Positions 1,671-56,888 of a stretch of DNA of 64,000 bases are shown here, in pieces (position 1 is the stretch's first letter; every line of letters starts with the position of its first letter). The stretch lies in contig CP179888.1 of NCBI GenBank assembly GCA_047456305.1, positions 189,307-253,306 on the forward strand, given 5' to 3'. Under the pieces are notes generated by a model. The model searched no databases. It was given only the letters and a program-made list of their open reading frames with translations, and was not told the DNA's origin. A program made the position numbers and the translations under genes. Origin of the DNA: Candidatus Nealsonbacteria bacterium. Lineage in GTDB: Bacteria > Patescibacteriota > Minisyncoccia > Minisyncoccales > CAZKCU01.

Positions 1671-2429
1671 ATGTGGAAAAAGCTCAACATAAAAAACTTT
1701 GCTTTATCTCTTCTCTTTCCCCGGTTTTGCTTTTGCTGCCAGAAAGAAGGAAGTTATCTTTGTGAAGATTGTCTTTCTACTATTGAAATTTCTGAGCATC
1801 AATACTGTCTTTGTCAAAAGCCTCAAAAAATCTGGCAGGGAGGAAAATGTCAAAGATGTGTCTCCCGAAAACTCAACGGCCTTTATTTTGCTGCCCCCTA
1901 CCAAAATAGTTTAGTTCAAAACTTAATTCACAGCTTTAAATATAAGCCTTTTATAAAAGAGCTCTCAAAACCATTAGCTTCTTTAATAATAAATCATTTT
2001 CAATTACTCGACAATCCTCCTGATTTTTTTTACCCCGTTAAATCCCGCGAAGCGGGTGCGAAGCAATTTAACGGGGCTGAATTTCTTCTCCTGTCTATTC
2101 CTTTGGAGAAAAGGAAGTTAAAGGAGCGGGGATTTAATCAGGCAGAAGAATTAGCTAAAGAGCTCTCAAAATCCTTGAAAATCCCTTTGTTAAATGATGT
2201 CTTAATAAAAATAAAAGAAACTTTACCCCAAGTTGAACTTTCCGGGAAAAAAAGAGAAGAAAATATCAAAGGAGTATTTTTGGTAAAAAATACTGAGAAA
2301 ATAAGAGGAAGAAAAGTTCTTTTAGTTGACGATGTTTACACAACCGGCTCAACTATGGATGAGGGTGCCCGAGTTTTAAAAACGGCTGGAGCAAAAGAGG
2401 TTTGGGGAGTGGTAGTAGCCAGAGGATAA
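1671..2429 (+). CDS. comF: ComF family protein (zinc-ribbon N-terminus plus phosphoribosyltransferase fold)
   Basis: 252 aa. N-terminal CxxC...CxxC pairs and the C-terminal PRTase motif 'VLLVDDVYTTGSTMDE'. Carries an in-frame palindromic insertion at 2033-2076. Confidence 0.8.
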   Translation: MWKKLNIKNFALSLLFPRFCFCCQKEGSYLCEDCLSTIEISEHQYCLCQKPQKIWQGGKCQRCVSRKLNGLYFAAPYQNSLVQNLIHSFKYKPFIKELSKPLASLIINHFQLLDNPPDFFYPVKSREAGAKQFNGAEFLLLSIPLEKRKLKERGFNQAEELAKELSKSLKIPLLNDVLIKIKETLPQVELSGKKREENIKGVFLVKNTEKIRGRKVLLVDDVYTTGSTMDEGARVLKTAGAKEVWGVVVARG

Positions 2430-22776: not shown

Positions 22777-22848
22777 GGGCACGTAGTTCATTGGTAGAAC
22801 GCTTCTCTTATAAAGAAGAGGTAGAAGGTTCGATCCCTTCCGTGCCCA
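22777..22848 (+). tRNA. tRNA-Ile(UAU)
   Basis: 72 nt starting 3 nt after the ftsH stop. Acceptor GGGCACG/CGTGCCC, anticodon stem CTTCT/AGAAG, loop CTTATAA (anticodon TAT), T-arm GAAGG-TTCGATC-CCTTC. Confidence 0.8.
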
Positions 22849-22855
22849 CACAAAT

Positions 22856-41206: not shown

Positions 41207-41228
41207 AAAAGTTTTATATTATTTAATT

Positions 41229-41301
41229 GGTTCACCCTGTTAAATAATTTCGCCTTTGGCGAAATTGCCGCAGAGTGGCATTTAACAGGGTAAAGTGAAC
41301 C
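41229..41301. repeat. ORF-less palindromic element with CCCTGTTAAAT / ATTTAACAGGG termini
   Basis: ggttcaCCCTGTTAAATaatttcgcctttggcgaaattgccgcagagtggcATTTAACAGGGtaaagtgaacc, with the inner hairpin AATTTCGCC-TTT-GGCGAAATT. The right arm overlaps the kinase stop codon. The same termini flank the GIY-YIG ORF at 48215-48499 and the comF insert at 2033-2076. Confidence 0.8.
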
Positions 41302-42256
41302 AAAAGGTCGACCCAACTCCCTCTTGGCTTGAAAATCCAATTTTTCCTCCTGATTTTTCAACAATGGCTTTGGTAATATAAAGACCTAAGCCTGATCCCT
41401 GGGTTTGATATCTCAAGACATTTTCTGAACGGAAAAATTTTTGGAAAATATATTTTTTATCTTCCTTAGGAATACCTACGCCATTATCTGCAATTTCAAA
41501 ATAAAGTTTTTTTCCTTTCTTCTCAAGTTTTATTTTAACTTTACCTTTATTTTTAATATAACGAATGGCATTATCTAAGAGATTCCCAATTACTAATCTA
41601 ATTTGAGAGGGATCAGCAAGAATCTCTGGTAAATCCTCCTCACTCTTGAATTTTACCTCAATATTTGAGGCCTGAATAAAAGGCTTAAATTCTAAGATTA
41701 AATCTTTTATTAAATTCTCTAAAGAAAACTTTCGCTTTTTTAAGGAAAGATCTCTTTGTTCAATTCTTGAAACGGTTAATAAATCTGAAATTAACTCCTC
41801 CATCCGACTATTATTTTCTTTTAAAATTTTAAAGTATTCTGTTTGTTTTTCCTCAATCTTGCCAATTCTGCCCGACATTAAAAGCTCAATCGCCCATCTT
41901 AAATTAGAAAGGGGACTTCTTAATTGATGAGAAACCACACTGATAAATTCTGATTTCATTCTATTTGCCTCAGCCAATCTCTCAAAGCCCTGAATTATAA
42001 TAAAATCAATAATAAACAAAGTGGCGGTTAATAAAAGTATAATCAGAGCTATTAGCACAGGGTCCTCAACATAGCGGGTACCTATGGCATAGGTAATGAC
42101 GGCTGTTCCAATAATAATTATTCCCATTATTAAAAAAAGAAATTGGGGACACTGCCAAAGAGAAAGGCCATAGCGCCTACACTGAGCAATGATATTAAAT
42201 TGACTAAAAACTTTCTTGAAGTTCACTAATTCCATTGTAGCATATTTGAAAAACAA
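41282..42256 (-). CDS. sensor histidine kinase (2 TM, HisKA plus HATPase_c)
   Basis: 324 aa. H-box 'SVVSHQLRSPLSNL', N-box 'LLDNAIRY', G1 'DNGVGIP', G2 'GSGLGLYI'. Confidence 0.85.
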   Translation of the reverse strand: MFFKYATMELVNFKKVFSQFNIIAQCRRYGLSLWQCPQFLFLIMGIIIIGTAVITYAIGTRYVEDPVLIALIILLLTATLFIIDFIIIQGFERLAEANRMKSEFISVVSHQLRSPLSNLRWAIELLMSGRIGKIEEKQTEYFKILKENNSRMEELISDLLTVSRIEQRDLSLKKRKFSLENLIKDLILEFKPFIQASNIEVKFKSEEDLPEILADPSQIRLVIGNLLDNAIRYIKNKGKVKIKLEKKGKKLYFEIADNGVGIPKEDKKYIFQKFFRSENVLRYQTQGSGLGLYITKAIVEKSGGKIGFSSQEGVGSTFWFTLPC

Positions 42257-44334: not shown

Positions 44335-47300
44335 TTAAAATGGCGCAATCTCTTTCCATATAGGAAGAGGAAGCTGACTATTTAAAGTTTTAGTGCGAGA
44401 ACAGGAGAAACCATCAGAATCAGTAACTCTGAGAGTAATGTCTTTTTCGCCAGTGGAAGGGAATTTAGCTGTTGGATTTTGCTCGGTGGAACTGGCCGGG
44501 CTGCCATCCTGGAAAGTCCAGAACCAGCTTTCTTTAGTAGTTCCTCCATAGACAGTTGATTGGTCAACGAATAAAACATCTTCATTAACGCTTGGTTTAA
44601 ATGGAGACCAGCTAAAGTCAATTTCTGGACAGGCATGTGTTGGGGTGCTAAAGCTGGGACCTGAAATCCAGTTAGAATCAAGGCCTTTATTATCCCAGAC
44701 TTTTAATCTCCAGTAATATGTATTGTTGTATTTCAACTTACCCAAGATAGTGGCATAGGAATTAGAGCTTGATGTTACTTTTCCAGAATCATCTTCAGGT
44801 TTAGAGAAATTACTATTGTTATCTACCTGAACTCGGTAGGCAGATTGAGTGTCTCCTGGGTCAGGGTCAGTGAAAGTCCAGGAGAAATACGCAGCTGGCC
44901 CAGAAAGACAATAATCTGGCTGGACTACCTTAAGATTGGTGGCTGAGGGAGGCTGATTGGGAATAACAGTTATAATAGTTACTGTTGTTGAACGGGAAAT
45001 ACTGCCTCCAGGACCAGTACATTTCATTGAGTAACTAGTGGTAATAGAAGGGCTAACCGGTCTACTGCCAGAAGTTGGCACTGAGCCTGACAAACCGGCT
45101 GTCCAGCTACAAGAACTAGTATTGCTTGAAGACCAACTTAAAGTAGAAGATTGACCTTTGTCAATTGAAGAAGGATTAGCGAATAAATTAAGGATAGGGA
45201 CAAGGCATGCGCTGTCAGCCACGCATCGAGATTGAGAATCACAGCCAGAAGGAGTACAGGTACGAGTTTGCTGTCTTTGGGTAGCAGAACAACTACCTCC
45301 TCCGCATGAACCATTAGCCCAACTTGTGCAAGAACAACCAATTTTTCTATAGCCGGTACAGTTTGGACAGTCAGAGCTATTCCAGGTACCAATTATTTCA
45401 TAACCTGAAGCTGGACTCCGTCTAGTACAGGAACAATCGGGCCAGACATGGCTGGTAGTACCGTGGTTTACACAAGTATGCCCACAGTCTGGTAGGGTTT
45501 TTTTATAGCCGGTGCAGTTTGGACAGTCAGAGCTATTCCAGGTTCCAATTATTTTATAACCTGAAGCTGGACTCCGTCTAGTACAGGAACAATCGGGCCA
45601 GCCAACACTCGCGGTACCATGATTTAAGCAGGTATGACCACAATCTGGTAAAATCGGTTTTTCTCTGCATTTCCCTTCTGAACAACCATAAGGACAAGCA
45701 ACACAATTGATTATGGCGTTTTCTTTTTGGCAACCAACTCCTTCAATACAGCCTCCAGAATAAACTGTTTTTTGGCACTCCCACCAACGACCGTACTTAT
45801 AATCACAATAAGAAGGACCAGTTTTGGAAGTTATTGGACCGCAGTCTCTTAGATAAACTTCAGAGGGTAGCCCAAAGTCCTGACAGTGACCTGTATCTCT
45901 GAAACAACCTCCAGAACACCATGTCTTATAATAAAGCTTAGTTCCATCGCAGTGGTATTCACCATCGGTGCAAGTCTTTGGGCCACAATCTTCCCAATCT
46001 GGTTCCCAGACCCTACAGTATGAGAGGAAAAGGCGTCTAGAGCACTCAATAAATCCTCCCAGACAAGCTTGGTTACCTATACATCCCGAATAACCCCCTT
46101 CTTGCTGACTACAATTACCACTAGGGATGCTTTTTCCACAAAGAGAAGTTTTTGTAGTTCCGGGTATAGACTTACATCTGCCCCAAGAACAATAATAACA
46201 TTCAGGGCACATATCATCGATCCAACAGACAGGGTATATAAGGCATCTTCCATCTGCACAGTCAAACTCACAATCTTCAACTCTTTCTTCATCGGGCTCA
46301 GTACGTTCATAGCACTCACTTTCTGAACATCCTCTCTTAACACAAATTGTCTTATGATAAACATCGCCGTCTTTACAATAGTTATCACCCCAATCGCCGC
46401 ACTCATCCGAGCCGCAGTCTTTTGACAAATAATCGTACTTCTTAAACACCCAGCAAGCACCGCCTGAGCAACCTCCAGAGCAGCTAAATGTATACCGGCG
46501 TTCGCTTCCGCTACAATAATAAGTAGCAGAGGTACAGGTCCTTTTGCCGCAATAAGTTACAGGCTCACTATTGGTGCCAGTAAAGTAATAGCAAGAACTT
46601 CCTGAACATCCCCGGTAGTAAACTGTTCTTTTTCTACGTAAATAATCACCTGAACAGTAATAGCTCCAGGAACCATAGCTGGTGGAGCCACAACTTCTTA
46701 CAGGCTCACTATTGGTGCCAGTAAAGTAATAGCAAGAACTTCCTGAACAACCCCGGTAGTAAACAGTTCTTTTTCTACGTAAATAATTCCCTGAACAATA
46801 ATAGCTCCAGGAACCATAGCTGGTGGAGCCGCAATAAGTTACATAACTCGTTTGGGTGCCAGTAAAGTAATAGCAAGAACTTCCTGAACAACCCCGGTAG
46901 TAAACTGTTCTTTTTTTGTATAGACTACTCCCCGAACAGTAATAACTCCAGGAACCATAGCTGGTGGAGCCGCAATAAGTTACATAACTCGTTTGGGTGC
47001 GGGTATAGTAATAACAAGAACTTCCTGAACAACCTCGGTAGTAAACAGTTCTCCTTTTGTATACTCTACTCCCGGAACAGTAGTAGCTCCAGGAGCCGTA
47101 GCTGGTGGAGCCGCAATTTGTTACATAACTCGTTTGGGTGCTAGTACGGTAATAACAAGAACCACCTGAACATCCCCGAGAGTAAACAGTTCTCCTTTTG
47201 TATACTCTACTCCCAGAACAGTAATAACTCCAAGAGCCGTAGCTGGTAGAGCCGCAGTTTTTTACATAGCTTGTTCGAGTTCTAGTATAGGAATAACACT

Positions 47301-47655
47301 TATTTCCTGAACAACCTCGGTAGTAAACAGTTCTCCTTTTGTATACTCTACTCCCGGAACAATAGTAGCTCCAGGAGCCATAGCTGGTAGAACCGCAGTT
47401 TTTATATTTTCTACAAGAACCACAGCCATAACGGGTGCAATATTTCCTTTGACGATAGTTACCAGAACAAGAACAGTTATAGCTATACCAAGAATATACT
47501 GCACTACAGTAATTTAGATGCTCAGTAATTGAAGACAGCCTAATACCAGACTGACCGTCCTCCAAAGATTTGTCAAAAGACCAATCAACCCTTAAAGGAA
47601 TAAGAGCTATCAAAAAAGCAAAAAATATAGAAATAAGAATTATTTTCTTATTCAT
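44335..47655 (-). CDS. giant secreted cysteine-rich repeat protein with C-terminal Ig-like, FN3-like and PKD-like domains (putative adhesin)
   Basis: 1106 aa. N-terminal signal/anchor (IILISIFFAFLIALIPL). Six 47-aa units 'CGSTSYGSWSYYCSG...KRRTVYYRGCSGSSCYY.T.T.....'. Further Cys-rich modules, including two 52-aa 'LPDCGHTC.NHGT...WPDCSCTRRSPASGY.IIGTWNSSDCPNCTGY' units. Then 'STLSWSS...SC' Ig-like, 'SAYRVQVDNNSNF...YYWRLKVWD' FN3-like and 'ITLRVTDSDG' PKD-like segments. Confidence 0.7.
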   Translation of the reverse strand: MNKKIILISIFFAFLIALIPLRVDWSFDKSLEDGQSGIRLSSITEHLNYCSAVYSWYSYNCSCSGNYRQRKYCTRYGCGSCRKYKNCGSTSYGSWSYYCSGSRVYKRRTVYYRGCSGNKCYSYTRTRTSYVKNCGSTSYGSWSYYCSGSRVYKRRTVYSRGCSGGSCYYRTSTQTSYVTNCGSTSYGSWSYYCSGSRVYKRRTVYYRGCSGSSCYYYTRTQTSYVTYCGSTSYGSWSYYCSGSSLYKKRTVYYRGCSGSSCYYFTGTQTSYVTYCGSTSYGSWSYYCSGNYLRRKRTVYYRGCSGSSCYYFTGTNSEPVRSCGSTSYGSWSYYCSGDYLRRKRTVYYRGCSGSSCYYFTGTNSEPVTYCGKRTCTSATYYCSGSERRYTFSCSGGCSGGACWVFKKYDYLSKDCGSDECGDWGDNYCKDGDVYHKTICVKRGCSESECYERTEPDEERVEDCEFDCADGRCLIYPVCWIDDMCPECYYCSWGRCKSIPGTTKTSLCGKSIPSGNCSQQEGGYSGCIGNQACLGGFIECSRRLFLSYCRVWEPDWEDCGPKTCTDGEYHCDGTKLYYKTWCSGGCFRDTGHCQDFGLPSEVYLRDCGPITSKTGPSYCDYKYGRWWECQKTVYSGGCIEGVGCQKENAIINCVACPYGCSEGKCREKPILPDCGHTCLNHGTASVGWPDCSCTRRSPASGYKIIGTWNSSDCPNCTGYKKTLPDCGHTCVNHGTTSHVWPDCSCTRRSPASGYEIIGTWNSSDCPNCTGYRKIGCSCTSWANGSCGGGSCSATQRQQTRTCTPSGCDSQSRCVADSACLVPILNLFANPSSIDKGQSSTLSWSSSNTSSCSWTAGLSGSVPTSGSRPVSPSITTSYSMKCTGPGGSISRSTTVTIITVIPNQPPSATNLKVVQPDYCLSGPAAYFSWTFTDPDPGDTQSAYRVQVDNNSNFSKPEDDSGKVTSSSNSYATILGKLKYNNTYYWRLKVWDNKGLDSNWISGPSFSTPTHACPEIDFSWSPFKPSVNEDVLFVDQSTVYGGTTKESWFWTFQDGSPASSTEQNPTAKFPSTGEKDITLRVTDSDGFSCSRTKTLNSQLPLPIWKEIAPF
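46552..47397 (-). repeat. 6 x 141-bp tandem repeats inside the giant gene
   Basis: aa 87-368 consist of six consecutive 47-aa units with high DNA-level identity (for example, the recurring ggaaccatagctggtggagcc... blocks), followed by a degenerate seventh unit. Confidence 0.9.
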
Positions 47656-47687
47656 TTATTTTTCCAATAAATTTTCAGACAATTATT

Positions 47688-48212
47688 TTACTCTGCTGGT
47701 ATCAAATCTACTGGCGATACCCGAACTTCGGTCCCCTCTATGGTATAGTCTGGCTTTAAATCCAAAGTGATAAAAACATTATCCTCTACCTTAATCTCTT
47801 CAAAACTAATTTCTTTTTCGCCCAGATTGTATTCTTTTCCTTCGGCAATACTGATTGTGCCTGTTATCTCCTCTCTTGCAGCTCCGGCTGGCAAAATATA
47901 ATCAGAAATGATTTTTGCCTCCTGGCTAATCGGAACTACTAAAGAAGGTGTCTCCTCTCCTGTCTCAGTAAATCCTGCAACGGTTAAATTACGACCAGAT
48001 ATTTCTTTTACGATACCACTAACAGAAAGCACCCACCGAATTGCTTCTGAAGCCAACAAAGAATCCATTTTTTGTAATTTTTCTGCTTCTAATCCTTTCT
48101 GTATTCCTGGAGTTATTCCTTGCCTTCCCACATTTAAACCAATATAATAACTTATCCCTATCAAAAAAATAGCAATGACAATAATGACGAAAATAGCTAT
48201 TTTTTTATTCAT
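47688..48212 (-). CDS. membrane-anchored protein of unknown function (paralog of 48826-49293)
   Basis: 174 aa. N-terminal TM anchor. Shares 'GLE.EK.Q...SL..SE......ISG.V.EI......V......EE..LV.P.SQEA.I......KEI.FE.IKV.D.VF' with the 155-aa ORF. Start codon abuts the GIY-YIG stop (TAAATG). Confidence 0.45.
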   Translation of the reverse strand: MNKKIAIFVIIVIAIFLIGISYYIGLNVGRQGITPGIQKGLEAEKLQKMDSLLASEAIRWVLSVSGIVKEISGRNLTVAGFTETGEETPSLVVPISQEAKIISDYILPAGAAREEITGTISIAEGKEYNLGEKEISFEEIKVEDNVFITLDLKPDYTIEGTEVRVSPVDLIPAE

Positions 48213-48470
48213 TTACCCTGTTAAATAAGATTTGAGCCTGTTCTTTAAGAACATCTTACCGAGATAAGTTTTTAAATACTTTTCTCGGTGAGTAGCATCT
48301 TTTTGACTTAGACAGGCTTCGTAATAAATTAACTTCAACGGTCTTCTGTCTTTAGTGGACTTAACTAATCCCTTCCGATGCTGCTCAAATCTTAATTTTA
48401 AATTGTTAGTATACCCTGTATATAATTTTTTATCTTTGTCTGACTTCAAAACCTAAACATAATGAAACAT
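48213..48470 (-). pseudogene. GIY-YIG nuclease-family gene (UPF0213/YhbQ-like) with in-frame TAG at codon 6
   Basis: Reading from ATG 48470 gives MFHYV-TAG-VLKSDKDKKLYTGYTNNLKLRFEQHRKG...REKYLK. The TAG (48453-48455) sits where the conserved Tyr of the 'YVY(I/V)L' GIY strand is expected. The ORF track only reports the TTG-initiated remainder (48213-48449). Confidence 0.6.
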
Positions 48471-48687
48471 AACAAAGATTTAAAATTATTTAACAGGGTT
48501 AATTTTCGACCTTTAAAAAACTTTACTTTATTTATTATACAATTATACCATAATTATTACATTATATGTCAATGTTATTATATCACAATTAAAAAATAGA
48601 AAGCCTGTGGATAACTAAAGAACTATTTTAAATGGCATTTAGTTAAATAACCTTTTTAAAAATTTTTGTAAAAAGGAGGTAATACTT

Positions 48688-48813
48688 CTATATTACCTCC
48701 TTCTTGAATACTGTTGGTTTTAAATCGTAAACAAAAATATTTATTACAATTAAGACTATAGCTAAAGCAATAATTCCAATAATTCCTGAAGTTAATTTGA
48801 TTCTTTCTTTCAT
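48688..48813 (-). CDS. 41-aa single-TM peptide (not in ORF track)
   Basis: ATG 48813, MKERIKLTSGIIGIIALAIVLIVINIFVYDLKPTVFKKEVI, with stop TAG at 48688-48690. It lies 12 nt downstream of the 155-aa ORF, and its stop lies in the loop of the terminator hairpin GGAGGTAATA/TATTACCTCC followed by a T-run. Confidence 0.4.
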   Translation of the reverse strand: MKERIKLTSGIIGIIALAIVLIVINIFVYDLKPTVFKKEVI

Positions 48814-48825
48814 TATCATCAATCA

Positions 48826-49293
48826 TCACCTTCTTGCTTCCGATATCGATACATAAACTCCTTGCAAAGGAGAGTCTGACAGAATTACTTCTATCGAGTT
48901 TAGTAAAACAAAAACTTTATCTCCCACTTTTATATCCTCGAAAGCAATTTCCTTTTTCCCTAAAGTGATTTCTGCCTCCTGGCTGACCGGAATCACTAGA
49001 AATCTTTCTTCCCCTTCTTCATTGATAACAAGAGTGTATTCAAAGATTTCTTCTACCTTACCGGCAATACTGAAGCCACCCAAAAATTCTTCTGAGCCTA
49101 TCAGAGAACGAAGTCTTTGAATCTTTTCCATTTCTAACCCTTTACTATAACCTTCCTCATATCCTGATAACTTACCTTCTTTTAGGCCAATATTATATTG
49201 TTCAGTATATTTCAGATATCCTATGAAACCGGCGAATCCTAAAGCAGAAATTAGCATTACTACTAAAAGAGCTGTCAAAATCTTCTTTTTCAT
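48826..49293 (-). CDS. membrane-anchored protein of unknown function (paralog of 47688-48212)
   Basis: 155 aa. N-terminal TM anchor (ILTALLVVMLISALGFAGFIGYL). See the paralog motif above. Preceded by the RBS GGAGGAAG and a conserved promoter. Confidence 0.5.
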   Translation of the reverse strand: MKKKILTALLVVMLISALGFAGFIGYLKYTEQYNIGLKEGKLSGYEEGYSKGLEMEKIQRLRSLIGSEEFLGGFSIAGKVEEIFEYTLVINEEGEERFLVIPVSQEAEITLGKKEIAFEDIKVGDKVFVLLNSIEVILSDSPLQGVYVSISEARR

Positions 49294-49348
49294 TTCTTCC
49301 TCCTTAGTTTTCTTTCCCTATTAATAAATATTTAAATATTCTAATAAG

Positions 49349-49377: not shown

Positions 49378-49530
49378 ATGAAAAAATCTCTAATCGAGAA
49401 AAGTAAAAGAGGCAAATGTAAAATTTGCCTCCCTTCTTATTATAGGACTTGTTCGGCTCGAGCAAAGAGTAGAGCGAAAAACCTCAATGACTTGGATACT
49501 CGAATAAACCTGAATAAATAGGTTAGAAAA

Positions 49531-49570
49531 AAATAATAATCCCTGAATCTCGTTTAAGATTCAGGGATTT
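49531..49570 (-). terminator. rho-independent terminator after the 85-aa ORF
   Basis: AATCCCTGAATC-(8 nt)-GATTCAGGGATT, followed on the minus strand by ATTATTTTTTT. Confidence 0.65.
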
Positions 49571-49597
49571 TTCTCTGATTTTTTTTCTAACCTTACG

Positions 49598-56777: not shown

Positions 56778-56848
56778 TGGACCCGGGCAGATTTGAACTG
56801 CCGTTTCTACAATGCGAATGTAGCGTTCTTCCACTGAACTACAGGCCC
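56778..56848 (-). tRNA. tRNA-Ala(CGC)
   Basis: 71 nt. Acceptor GGGCCTG/CGGGTCC with G3:U70, anticodon stem CTACA/TGTAG, loop TTCGCAT, T-arm GGCAG-TTCAAAT-CTGCC. Confidence 0.8.
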
Positions 56849-56879
56849 CGTAGAAGAATTTCGAAATTCTTCTACGGGG
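56846..56879. repeat. 34-nt perfect palindrome between two tRNA genes
   Basis: CCCCGTAGAAGAATTTCGAAATTCTTCTACGGGG. Its last three bases on the minus strand are the first three G of tRNA-Ala(CGC). Confidence 0.95.
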
Positions 56880-56888
56880 CAGACCCGG

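Follow-up and report, generated by a model that had tools for sequence, protein, structure and literature searches.

We describe a 291-bp unit that carries a small gene for a nuclease of the GIY-YIG type. It lies in a window of DNA 64,000 nucleotides long (the whole stretch that was analysed; G+C 36%) from a Candidatus Nealsonbacteria bacterium of the Patescibacteria (contig CP179888.1, positions 189,307 to 253,306). The most interesting result is a conserved and strongly covarying three-way junction, which encloses and overlaps the nuclease gene and is common to many short elements. We lean to reading the unit as one gene-carrying member of a small palindromic DNA element family, with a variant of the nuclease and repeat architecture known from Ssn. 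Ssn is represented by SsnA of Neisseria meningitidis, a single-domain GIY-YIG protein of 94 amino acids (aa) in family cd10448 (Chenal et al. 2025, PMC11893778). The element family occurs throughout Patescibacteria and also in some Bacteroidota. The anatomy of the unit, its conservation and covariation, its insertion polymorphism and the homology of its protein to SsnA are shown below. An original prediction, made from the letters of this DNA, had described the gene, a TAG within it and inverted repeats around it; the two inner helices overlapping the coding sequence, the conserved mismatch of the outer stem and the relation to the Ssn family go beyond it.

The gene and its bracketing repeats

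The comparison was done with 80 loci taken from GTDB species genomes, which cover many classes of Patescibacteria plus Bacteroidales, Flavobacteriia and others. The fetched loci bear L-numbers (e.g. L081) and amount to 1.15 Mb of DNA in total. The unit and its gene are located in the window as follows.

48212..48502, minus strand: whole gene-carrying unit (outer stem, leader, GIY-YIG open reading frame, 3′ arm), 291 bp; missing at the orthologous loci L114, L118, L121 and L115
48213..48470, minus strand: GIY-YIG open reading frame (ORF), 85 codons and stop, interrupted by TAG at codon 6 (from the ORF list, Pfam and the alignment)
48453..48455, minus strand: in-frame TAG replacing Tyr6, the Tyr of the ‘GIY’ motif; aligned with Tyr6 of SsnA
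48447..48449, minus strand: TTG, possible start of a 78-aa N-terminally truncated product without the first catalytic Tyr

On the minus strand the frame reads from ATG at 48470-48468 as MFHYV-TAG(48455-48453)-VLKSDKDKKLYTGYT... and is closed by TAA at 48215-48213. When the TAG was read as Tyr, the protein matched the Pfam family PF01541 (GIY-YIG) over residues 3-72 with a score of 59.4 bits, where the cut-off is 22.6 (E 4.2e-16), which bears out the domain assignment made earlier from the letters. The 85-aa protein holds PF01541 alone, plus a weak overlapping T5orf172 match, and so has a single domain; it has no family match in NCBIfam, and the window contains only this one GIY-YIG gene. Its relatives number in the thousands, are 84-87 aa long and share 80-94% identity. 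An Rfam search of 47500-49300 with E up to 10 returned chance-level matches only.

The 14-nt repeat ACCCTGTTAAATAA at 48215-48228 has its exact reverse complement at 48486-48499, with sequence and coordinates just as first predicted, and can be extended to 18 nt with one mismatch (48211-48228 versus 48486-48503). Its 3′ arm is coding and provides the final residues ...YLTG plus the stop. Within the window the motif is only modestly over-represented, with 4 matches at up to 2 mismatches against 1.2 expected. The decisive observation came from homologous genes elsewhere: about 78 of 82 copies keep both arms at the same positions with compensatory changes, and therefore the repeats are not due to chance. 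The recurrent arms are TTYACCCTGTTAAATAATTTTAAAT, lying 3-25 nt upstream of the start, and CTCAAATCTTATTTAACAGGGTRA, closing the gene; they are Watson-Crick paired position by position, and one position swaps among T-A, C-G and G-C. In more distant paralogues (38-54% identity) both positions are occupied by arms of another sequence. The search for terminator-like sites gave none. GIY-YIG copies lacking the flanks, or repeats that were common terminators, had been named beforehand as grounds for giving up the association; with about 78 of 82 copies carrying both arms, no terminator-like site, arms that covary and gene-less copies inside coding sequence, the repeats belong to the gene.

Some further paralogues were observed in the fetched loci. 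In L021 (979-728) a 52%-identical GIY-YIG paralogue is bracketed by arms, TCCCGTTAGAGAT / ATCTCTAACGGGA, that are much like those of a second palindromic family described below. More distant paralogues (39-44% identity) are present in L012 (14413-14655), L046 (6181-5987) and L050 (13909-14151) and are directly followed by sequence that, tentatively and by its appearance, is like the beginning of a tRNA gene; at least two of them are preceded by G+C-rich hairpins like the core of the Neisseria NTS repeat (e.g. GGTCCCGCAGAAAGCGGGA).

The three-way junction and its overlap with the coding sequence

Covariation was tested on a 70-sequence alignment (A5) of copies from Patescibacteria and Bacteroidota. 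In this alignment three helices, P1 to P3, abut without an unpaired junction base and form a perfect three-way junction. P1 is a 15-bp stem with the consensus TT-N-ACCCTGTTAAAT / ATTTAACAGGGT-N-AA, in which N.N is the conserved mismatch. The strands of the helices in the window are given below.

48488..48502, minus strand: P1 5′ arm TTAACCCTGTTAAAT; conserved mismatch at its third base (48500); A5 columns 6-20
48212..48226, minus strand: P1 3′ arm ATTTAACAGGGTAAA; part of Tyr82, Leu-Thr-Gly, TAA and the A of the next ATG
48478..48487, minus strand: P2 5′ strand AATTTTAAAT, in the untranslated leader; pairs with 48394-48403; 7 of 10 pairs compensated
48394..48403, minus strand: P2 3′ strand ATTTAAAATT, within codons 23-26; pairs with 48478-48487
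48384..48393, minus strand: P3 5′ strand AAGATTTGAG, within codons 26-29; pairs with 48227-48236; 4 of 10 pairs compensated
48227..48236, minus strand: P3 3′ strand CTCAAATCTT, within codons 79-82; pairs with 48384-48393; borne out by covariation, RNAalifold and codon constraint

Over the 34 pairs of the three helices 98.1% of the cells are paired, and 14 pairs have changes on both sides. Double-change cells number 65 as compared with 6.6 in shuffles, and none of 500 shuffles reached 65. In a control where one strand was slid by 1-3 columns the pairing fell to 25-55%. Column 21 covaries with 126 and not with 293, and column 292 with 128 and not with 22; thus the position of the junction is fixed. 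P1 and P3 were recovered independently by RNAalifold, and the window unit folded as DNA gives -46.1 kcal/mol (z -7.1). In a 38%-identical paralogue whose arms are unrelated, the fold likewise has an outer stem, with a long-range inner helix adjoining the 3′ arm.

The coding sequence bears marks at the same places. Synonymous sites are unusually constrained at codons 79-85 and 23-29, both of which are helix strands, and the fraction of the major codon is 0.85-1.0 across codons 23-29. Gly85 is encoded by GGG in 95% of copies, while at other Gly positions the commonest codon accounts for 39-58%.

Gene-less copies of the element

Two copies without the gene are present in the window, and both fold as perfect junctions (41224-41306 and 2026-2084).

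41227..41303, no strand assigned: outer stem with two abutting hairpins, plus a 9-bp outer stem with a 5-nt bulge; DNA fold z -9.1
2029..2081, no strand assigned: CCCCGTTAAAT / ATTTAACGGGG around CCCGCGAAGCGGG and TGCGAAGCA; DNA fold z -4.9

Both had been pointed out in the original prediction, as the same repeats without cargo at 41229-41301 and as an insert in comF, and both were found again here. The first provides the final codons and the stop of a histidine kinase ORF (41282-42256). The second contributes 18 in-frame codons to a ComF-like ORF (1671-2429), and a ComF homologue in L015, obtained as a tblastn match, shows an 11-residue gap at the element site; the comparison of the ComF-like protein with solved structures gave no match.

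The 1.15 Mb of fetched loci and the window together contain 35 orphan sites, and 18 of these have both arms. When metagenomes were scanned for exact arms separated by 18-48 nt, at least 120 gene-less stretches were obtained, of which 79 were analysed. Exactly two inner hairpins were seen in 64 of the 79, and 56 have no unpaired junction base. The short copies are about 55-85 bp long, and their inner arms are small G+C-rich hairpins with loops that are often GCGAAGC or related; loops of this type make very stable DNA mini-hairpins. No gene of the main family was met in 558 kb around 80 short copies, which is uninformative given the low copy number. The gene-carrying and the gene-less forms are supported as one element family with the same three-way-junction topology.

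Conserved mismatch of the outer stem

Counted from the base of P1, the third position hardly ever forms a Watson-Crick pair: C.A occurs in 36 copies, T.G in 24 and A.A in 8, and only 4 of 77 copies are paired there. In the window copy the mismatch is A.A. C.A and T.G convert into each other by a strand-flip, and on the gene tree the two classes are unclustered, as 25 of 45 nearest neighbours agree in class where chance would give 53%. Gene-less copies share the bias (C.A 27, T.G 17, paired 15; n=79), and in them the mismatch class is independent of the orientation of the inner hairpins. Inversion in place was considered as the source of the two classes and is unlikely, since the classes are unclustered and the CATTT left flank expected from an inverted TAAATG was seen in none of the T.G-class copies inspected. 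The outer three bases may derive from an asymmetric target, or the inner module may have been installed repeatedly, in either direction, through the palindromic arms.

Insertion site and mobility

The unit lies between a promoter-like site and a membrane-protein gene.

47688..48212, minus strand: downstream gene for a membrane protein of 174 aa; its ATG overlaps the GIY-YIG stop (TAAATG); used as query for orthologous empty sites
48561..48588, minus strand: promoter-like site TTGTGA-16-TATAAT upstream of the unit; the region is also conserved in relatives without the unit

In four related genomes (L114, L118, L121 and L115) the downstream protein has an orthologue of 80-91% identity and the unit is missing. 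All four empty sites keep the promoter region, TAAAGGTCGAAAATTAAC and the ATGAATAAAAAAATAGC start, and have an A/T-rich leader of 26-36 nt where the unit would be. As the orthologous loci are without the unit, the unit of the window is an insertion. Its common stretch with L081 covers the unit only, from AAATTAACCC to GGGTAAATG, and the upstream DNA of L081 is unrelated. Two contigs of one metagenome-assembled genome, L068 and L069, carry near-identical units in unrelated flanks, where the similarity is bounded by the unit ends; their coding sequences are one base apart, and the leader and the mismatch position differ slightly. Between copies in different phyla the protein identity is 75-92%.

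In L021 (9300-10720) about 65 nt of the 3′ end of rpoC are duplicated 1.2 kb downstream. Behind each copy of the rpoC end lies an element, both times in the same flanks; one is gene-bearing and the other has two hairpins. This pair looks like an exchange of the inner module between identical outer stems.

Two other accounts were tried and rejected. Frequent jumping within populations does not agree with identical proteins standing at one fixed locus per protein, and for a phage origin only one weak relative was available in 2.9 million viral contigs (IMG/VR).

In L114 (~1905-1965), L121 and L115 a second palindromic family, CCCCGTTAGAGATT...AATCTCTAACGGGG, is inserted some 15 nt upstream from the site of the GIY-YIG insertion; it is missing from the window (locus 48505-48530) and from L118. 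The direct repeat ATCTG(C/T)G was also seen on both sides of several gene-less elements in unrelated contigs (L134, L136, L162 and L179); this motif may represent a favoured target that becomes duplicated, or else belong to a larger composite repeat.

Several observations weigh against our reading of the unit as a copy of a mobile, Ssn-like element. The insertion in the window is not clean, as the 28-nt leader is missing. Two proteins that were looked up exactly each stand in one single context across 17-21 contigs, and the copy number is apparently low, about 1-3 per genome as judged from the loci sampled. The search for target-site duplications, which the original prediction had proposed, gave a divided answer: gene-bearing units have no excess of flanking direct repeats, and among gene-less copies direct repeats of at least 8 nt flank 6 of 79 against 0.45 expected, at variable offsets and with partly recurrent sequence. 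The protein family is no closer to Ssn than to the housekeeping family UPF0213, the three being roughly equidistant. The published pattern of the Ssn-related motif, SRM (HGTCWY..YYVSBRH..WNVSBRG..RNCYNB), is absent from the present repeats and was matched by two NTS controls; it has 7 sites in the 1.15 Mb, 1 of them near the GIY-YIG genes examined. Lastly, with a promoter-like site upstream the same helices could form in mRNA.

DNA or RNA structure

The unit is probably co-transcribed with the downstream gene, to judge from this promoter-like site and its conservation in relatives. The stop of the nuclease gene overlaps the next ATG as TAAATG (48215-48210), so that the two genes are tightly coupled. 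The helices may also be taken for an mRNA fold that controls translation of the nuclease and of the downstream gene or marks a site of RNase processing, the short copies being by-products. We consider this unlikely, although it has several points in its favour: the promoter-like site is conserved in relatives, the start codon lies in the loop of P2 while the stop and the next ATG lie in P1, a TRAATG overlap with the next ATG occurs in 16 of 82 copies, and P1 and P3 are the helices which RNAalifold recovers. Against these stands the composition of the mismatches. Over all three helices there are 16 G.T, 22 A.C and 24 others, so that G.U is not in excess over A.C or other mismatches, and therefore wobble tolerance of the structured-RNA kind is not seen. 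Moreover, short copies are located inside coding sequence, the inner module is oriented independently of the asymmetry of the outer stem, and the loops are of the stable DNA mini-hairpin kind. At some loci the gene is opposite in strand to both its neighbours. The related SsnA is inactive on RNA (PMC11893778). The lack of wobble bias, the copies translated in frame, the kinds of loop and the biochemical properties of SsnA favour a DNA structure, and we infer that the junction acts as DNA.

The in-frame TAG

Tyr6 and the C-terminal KSYLTG are near-invariant in the family (Tyr6 over 30 aligned homologues), and 77 of 78 full-length copies have TAT or TAC as the Tyr6 codon. The prediction that the TAG stands at the conserved Tyr of the first strand thus held good, and the intact alleles sought in relatives exist: the closest relative, L081 (94% aa identity), has TAT at this codon, one base different from TAG. 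In-frame stops are also seen in 2 of 82 other copies, L028 (TAG, codon 32) and L061 (TGA, codon 80).

It has to be asked if a full-length nuclease is still made, the TAG being an error of sequencing or assembly or being read through. The source genome is a metagenome assembly, the change is of a single base relative to TAT or TAC, and the remainder of the ORF is undamaged, as are all three helices. However, TAG terminates 10 of the 51 long ORFs of the window, so the standard code applies, and no CUA anticodon was found among the 24 tRNA genes of the 64-kb window; decay of the gene does occur, as the stops in the 2 other copies demonstrate. On balance this explanation is improbable, and the dependence on read-through once suggested for the gene is not upheld. 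The simplest reading appears to be a recent nonsense mutation in an otherwise intact unit. In SsnA, mutation of conserved tyrosines abolishes cutting and leaves binding (PMC11893778), and the window copy is predicted to be a pseudogene or at best a cleavage-dead truncation. The TAG is of minor importance and marks a single decayed copy.

That the gene is an ordinary small housekeeping GIY-YIG gene (UPF0213 / YazA-YhbQ type) beside unrelated terminators or chance palindromes is very improbable and, as far as the repeats go, is regarded as already refuted: the family profile does fit UPF0213 slightly better (98.0%, 41% identity) than Ssn and the PDB matches are UPF0213 proteins, but the arms are conserved and covary in 70 copies, terminator-like sites were not found, the genomic contexts vary and lack the trmNF-yazA-rsmI context of UPF0213, and the unit is present or absent at the same locus among related genomes.

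Proposed explanation and its significance

For the element family with its nuclease we propose the following working. In gene-carrying copies the two inner arms are 10-bp helices whose loops hold the 85-codon gene, with coding segments doubling as strands. The nuclease would bind and cut folded single-stranded junction elements, its own gene's included, either at the replication fork or on transforming DNA as it enters the cell. This could spread or maintain the elements through repair and copying, or modulate DNA uptake as for SsnA. In the window, the unit was inserted into the 5′ leader of the membrane-protein gene and seems to have received the TAG at the catalytic Tyr6 later. Recognition of the junction by the nuclease, and mobility driven by that recognition, are put forward here by analogy.

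A bolder version is possible but doubtful, namely that this is an undescribed autonomous selfish element, in which a structure-specific nuclease for single-stranded DNA, of the GIY-YIG/Ssn lineage, is encoded in the loops of its own junction substrate and mobilises itself together with a large population of short non-autonomous elements. These would insert into genes, sometimes in frame, across the Candidate Phyla Radiation and would have crossed into Bacteroidota. The original prediction had likewise taken the unit for the autonomous member of the palindromic family. Its membership in one family with the same junction topology was borne out; for the role of driver no support was obtained, as identical proteins stay at one fixed locus and target-site duplications are not in excess around gene-bearing units.

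If the proposed explanation is true, it would extend the partnership of nuclease and repeat reported for Ssn in 2025 to Patescibacteria, a very large group that is poorly understood. It would add a new layout, in which the gene is nested in its presumed substrate and its codons are also selected as helix strands, and would offer a concrete enzyme candidate for palindromic elements that insert in frame into genes. It would also provide a set of covarying nuclease and structure pairs for the tools for cutting single-stranded DNA that the Ssn authors proposed. Patescibacteria depend on DNA uptake, so the link to natural transformation is directly testable.

Other observations in the window and the fetched loci

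A perfect 36-nt palindrome, GCCCCGTAGAAGAATTTC/GAAATTCTTCTACGGGGC, at 56845-56880 of the window adjoins a tRNA-Ala. Related arms are present in L115, within the element at the orthologous 5′ leader, and in L081, upstream of its unit, and this palindrome may be a third element family. Nested palindromes, AGGTTAGAAAAAAA / TTTTTTTCTAACCT around AATAATCCCTGAATCT / AGATTCAGGGATT, lie at 49520-49593 and are conserved in L114. Just downstream of the 174-aa gene an ORF of 1106 aa (44335-47655), rich in Cys and Tyr, contains many tandem CGSTSYGSWSYYCSGS...YYRGCSG modules; the orthologous downstream ORFs of relatives have PKD- and Ig-like Pfam matches. One of the 24 tRNA genes in 64 kb is a tRNA-Ile with anticodon TAT (22777-22849), which suggests AUA decoding without lysidine. 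In PLSDB, the records NZ_CP119140.1 and NZ_CP119142.1 are 2.17-Mb Neisseria gonorrhoeae ‘plasmids’, evidently chromosomes, with ssnA and NTS repeats.

Comparison with known systems

SsnA binds the hairpin repeat NTS and cuts the adjacent single-stranded DNA, leaving double-stranded DNA and RNA untouched; its gene is flanked by NTS copies in a layout which the authors liken to an insertion sequence, and it modulates DNA uptake (PMC11893778). NTS-flanked members were recovered here as well, namely the 94-aa gonococcal orthologue (L083) and an Azospirillum gene with NTS pairs on both sides. Profiles were compared by hhalign, with Ssn represented by an alignment of seven Ssn-type proteins, two of them, including gonococcal SsnA, checked as NTS-flanked. 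The present family aligns with Ssn at a probability of 97.6% (E 4.6e-12, 34% identity) with Tyr6 on Tyr6, and with UPF0213 at 98.0% (41% identity); Ssn and UPF0213 align at 97.5% (25% identity). The protein thus appears to be a sister family of SsnA and of UPF0213.

The likeness to Ssn lies in a single-domain GIY-YIG protein of about 85-97 aa without an extra DNA-binding domain, in detectable homology with the catalytic Tyr aligned, and in a structured repeat that both brackets the gene and occurs dispersed, here in the form of a split stem around the gene. The inner hairpins of the short copies (CCCGCGAAGCGGGAAT) also resemble the NTS core CCCGCGMAVGCGGGAAT. The differences are that Neisseria and Azospirillum have complete small hairpins on each side, whereas here the gene is enclosed by one split structure, coding sequence takes part in two further helices and the repeat sequence is another one; that the protein is without the C-terminal KKWxRxWKxxLIExxNPxW signature; and that Patescibacteria and Bacteroidota are not mentioned in the main text of PMC11893778. 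In the literature no other paper describing this architecture was found. The system may resemble the Ssn/repeat pair in its working, and on the present evidence is not assignable to Ssn.

UPF0213 (B. subtilis YazA, E. coli YhbQ; PDB 1ZG2, 1YWL) is the best sequence and profile match and has the same size and fold class, but it has a fixed trmNF-yazA-rsmI context without repeats (four Bacillota records), while the present family has variable contexts and its own repeat. GIY-YIG homing endonucleases of the I-TevI type differ in having a second domain, and the TIGR01453 match of the present protein is far below the cut-off.

With REP/BIME-RAYT (TnpA-REP) and IS200/IS605 the unit shares a small nuclease gene between inverted copies of a dispersed hairpin-forming repeat, imperfect hairpins with a conserved mismatch, and a suspected single-strand DNA mechanism. 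Those systems, however, use an HUH Y1 transposase and their hairpins are separate and subterminal, whereas here GIY-YIG is the only domain found and one junction encloses the gene.

Rickettsia palindromic elements and other repeats like miniature inverted-repeat transposable elements are short palindromes inserted in frame in protein genes. To our knowledge no nuclease partner is established for the Rickettsia elements and the responsible enzyme is not known. The present elements are like them in their in-frame insertion, seen in the comF insert and at the 3′ end of the kinase gene, and unlike them in having a defined three-way junction and a gene-carrying form. A nuclease gene, here disabled, in the loops of a conserved three-armed fold that in many places stands without the gene, points to a small DNA element, selfish or domesticated, with kinship to the Ssn systems of nuclease and hairpin repeat.

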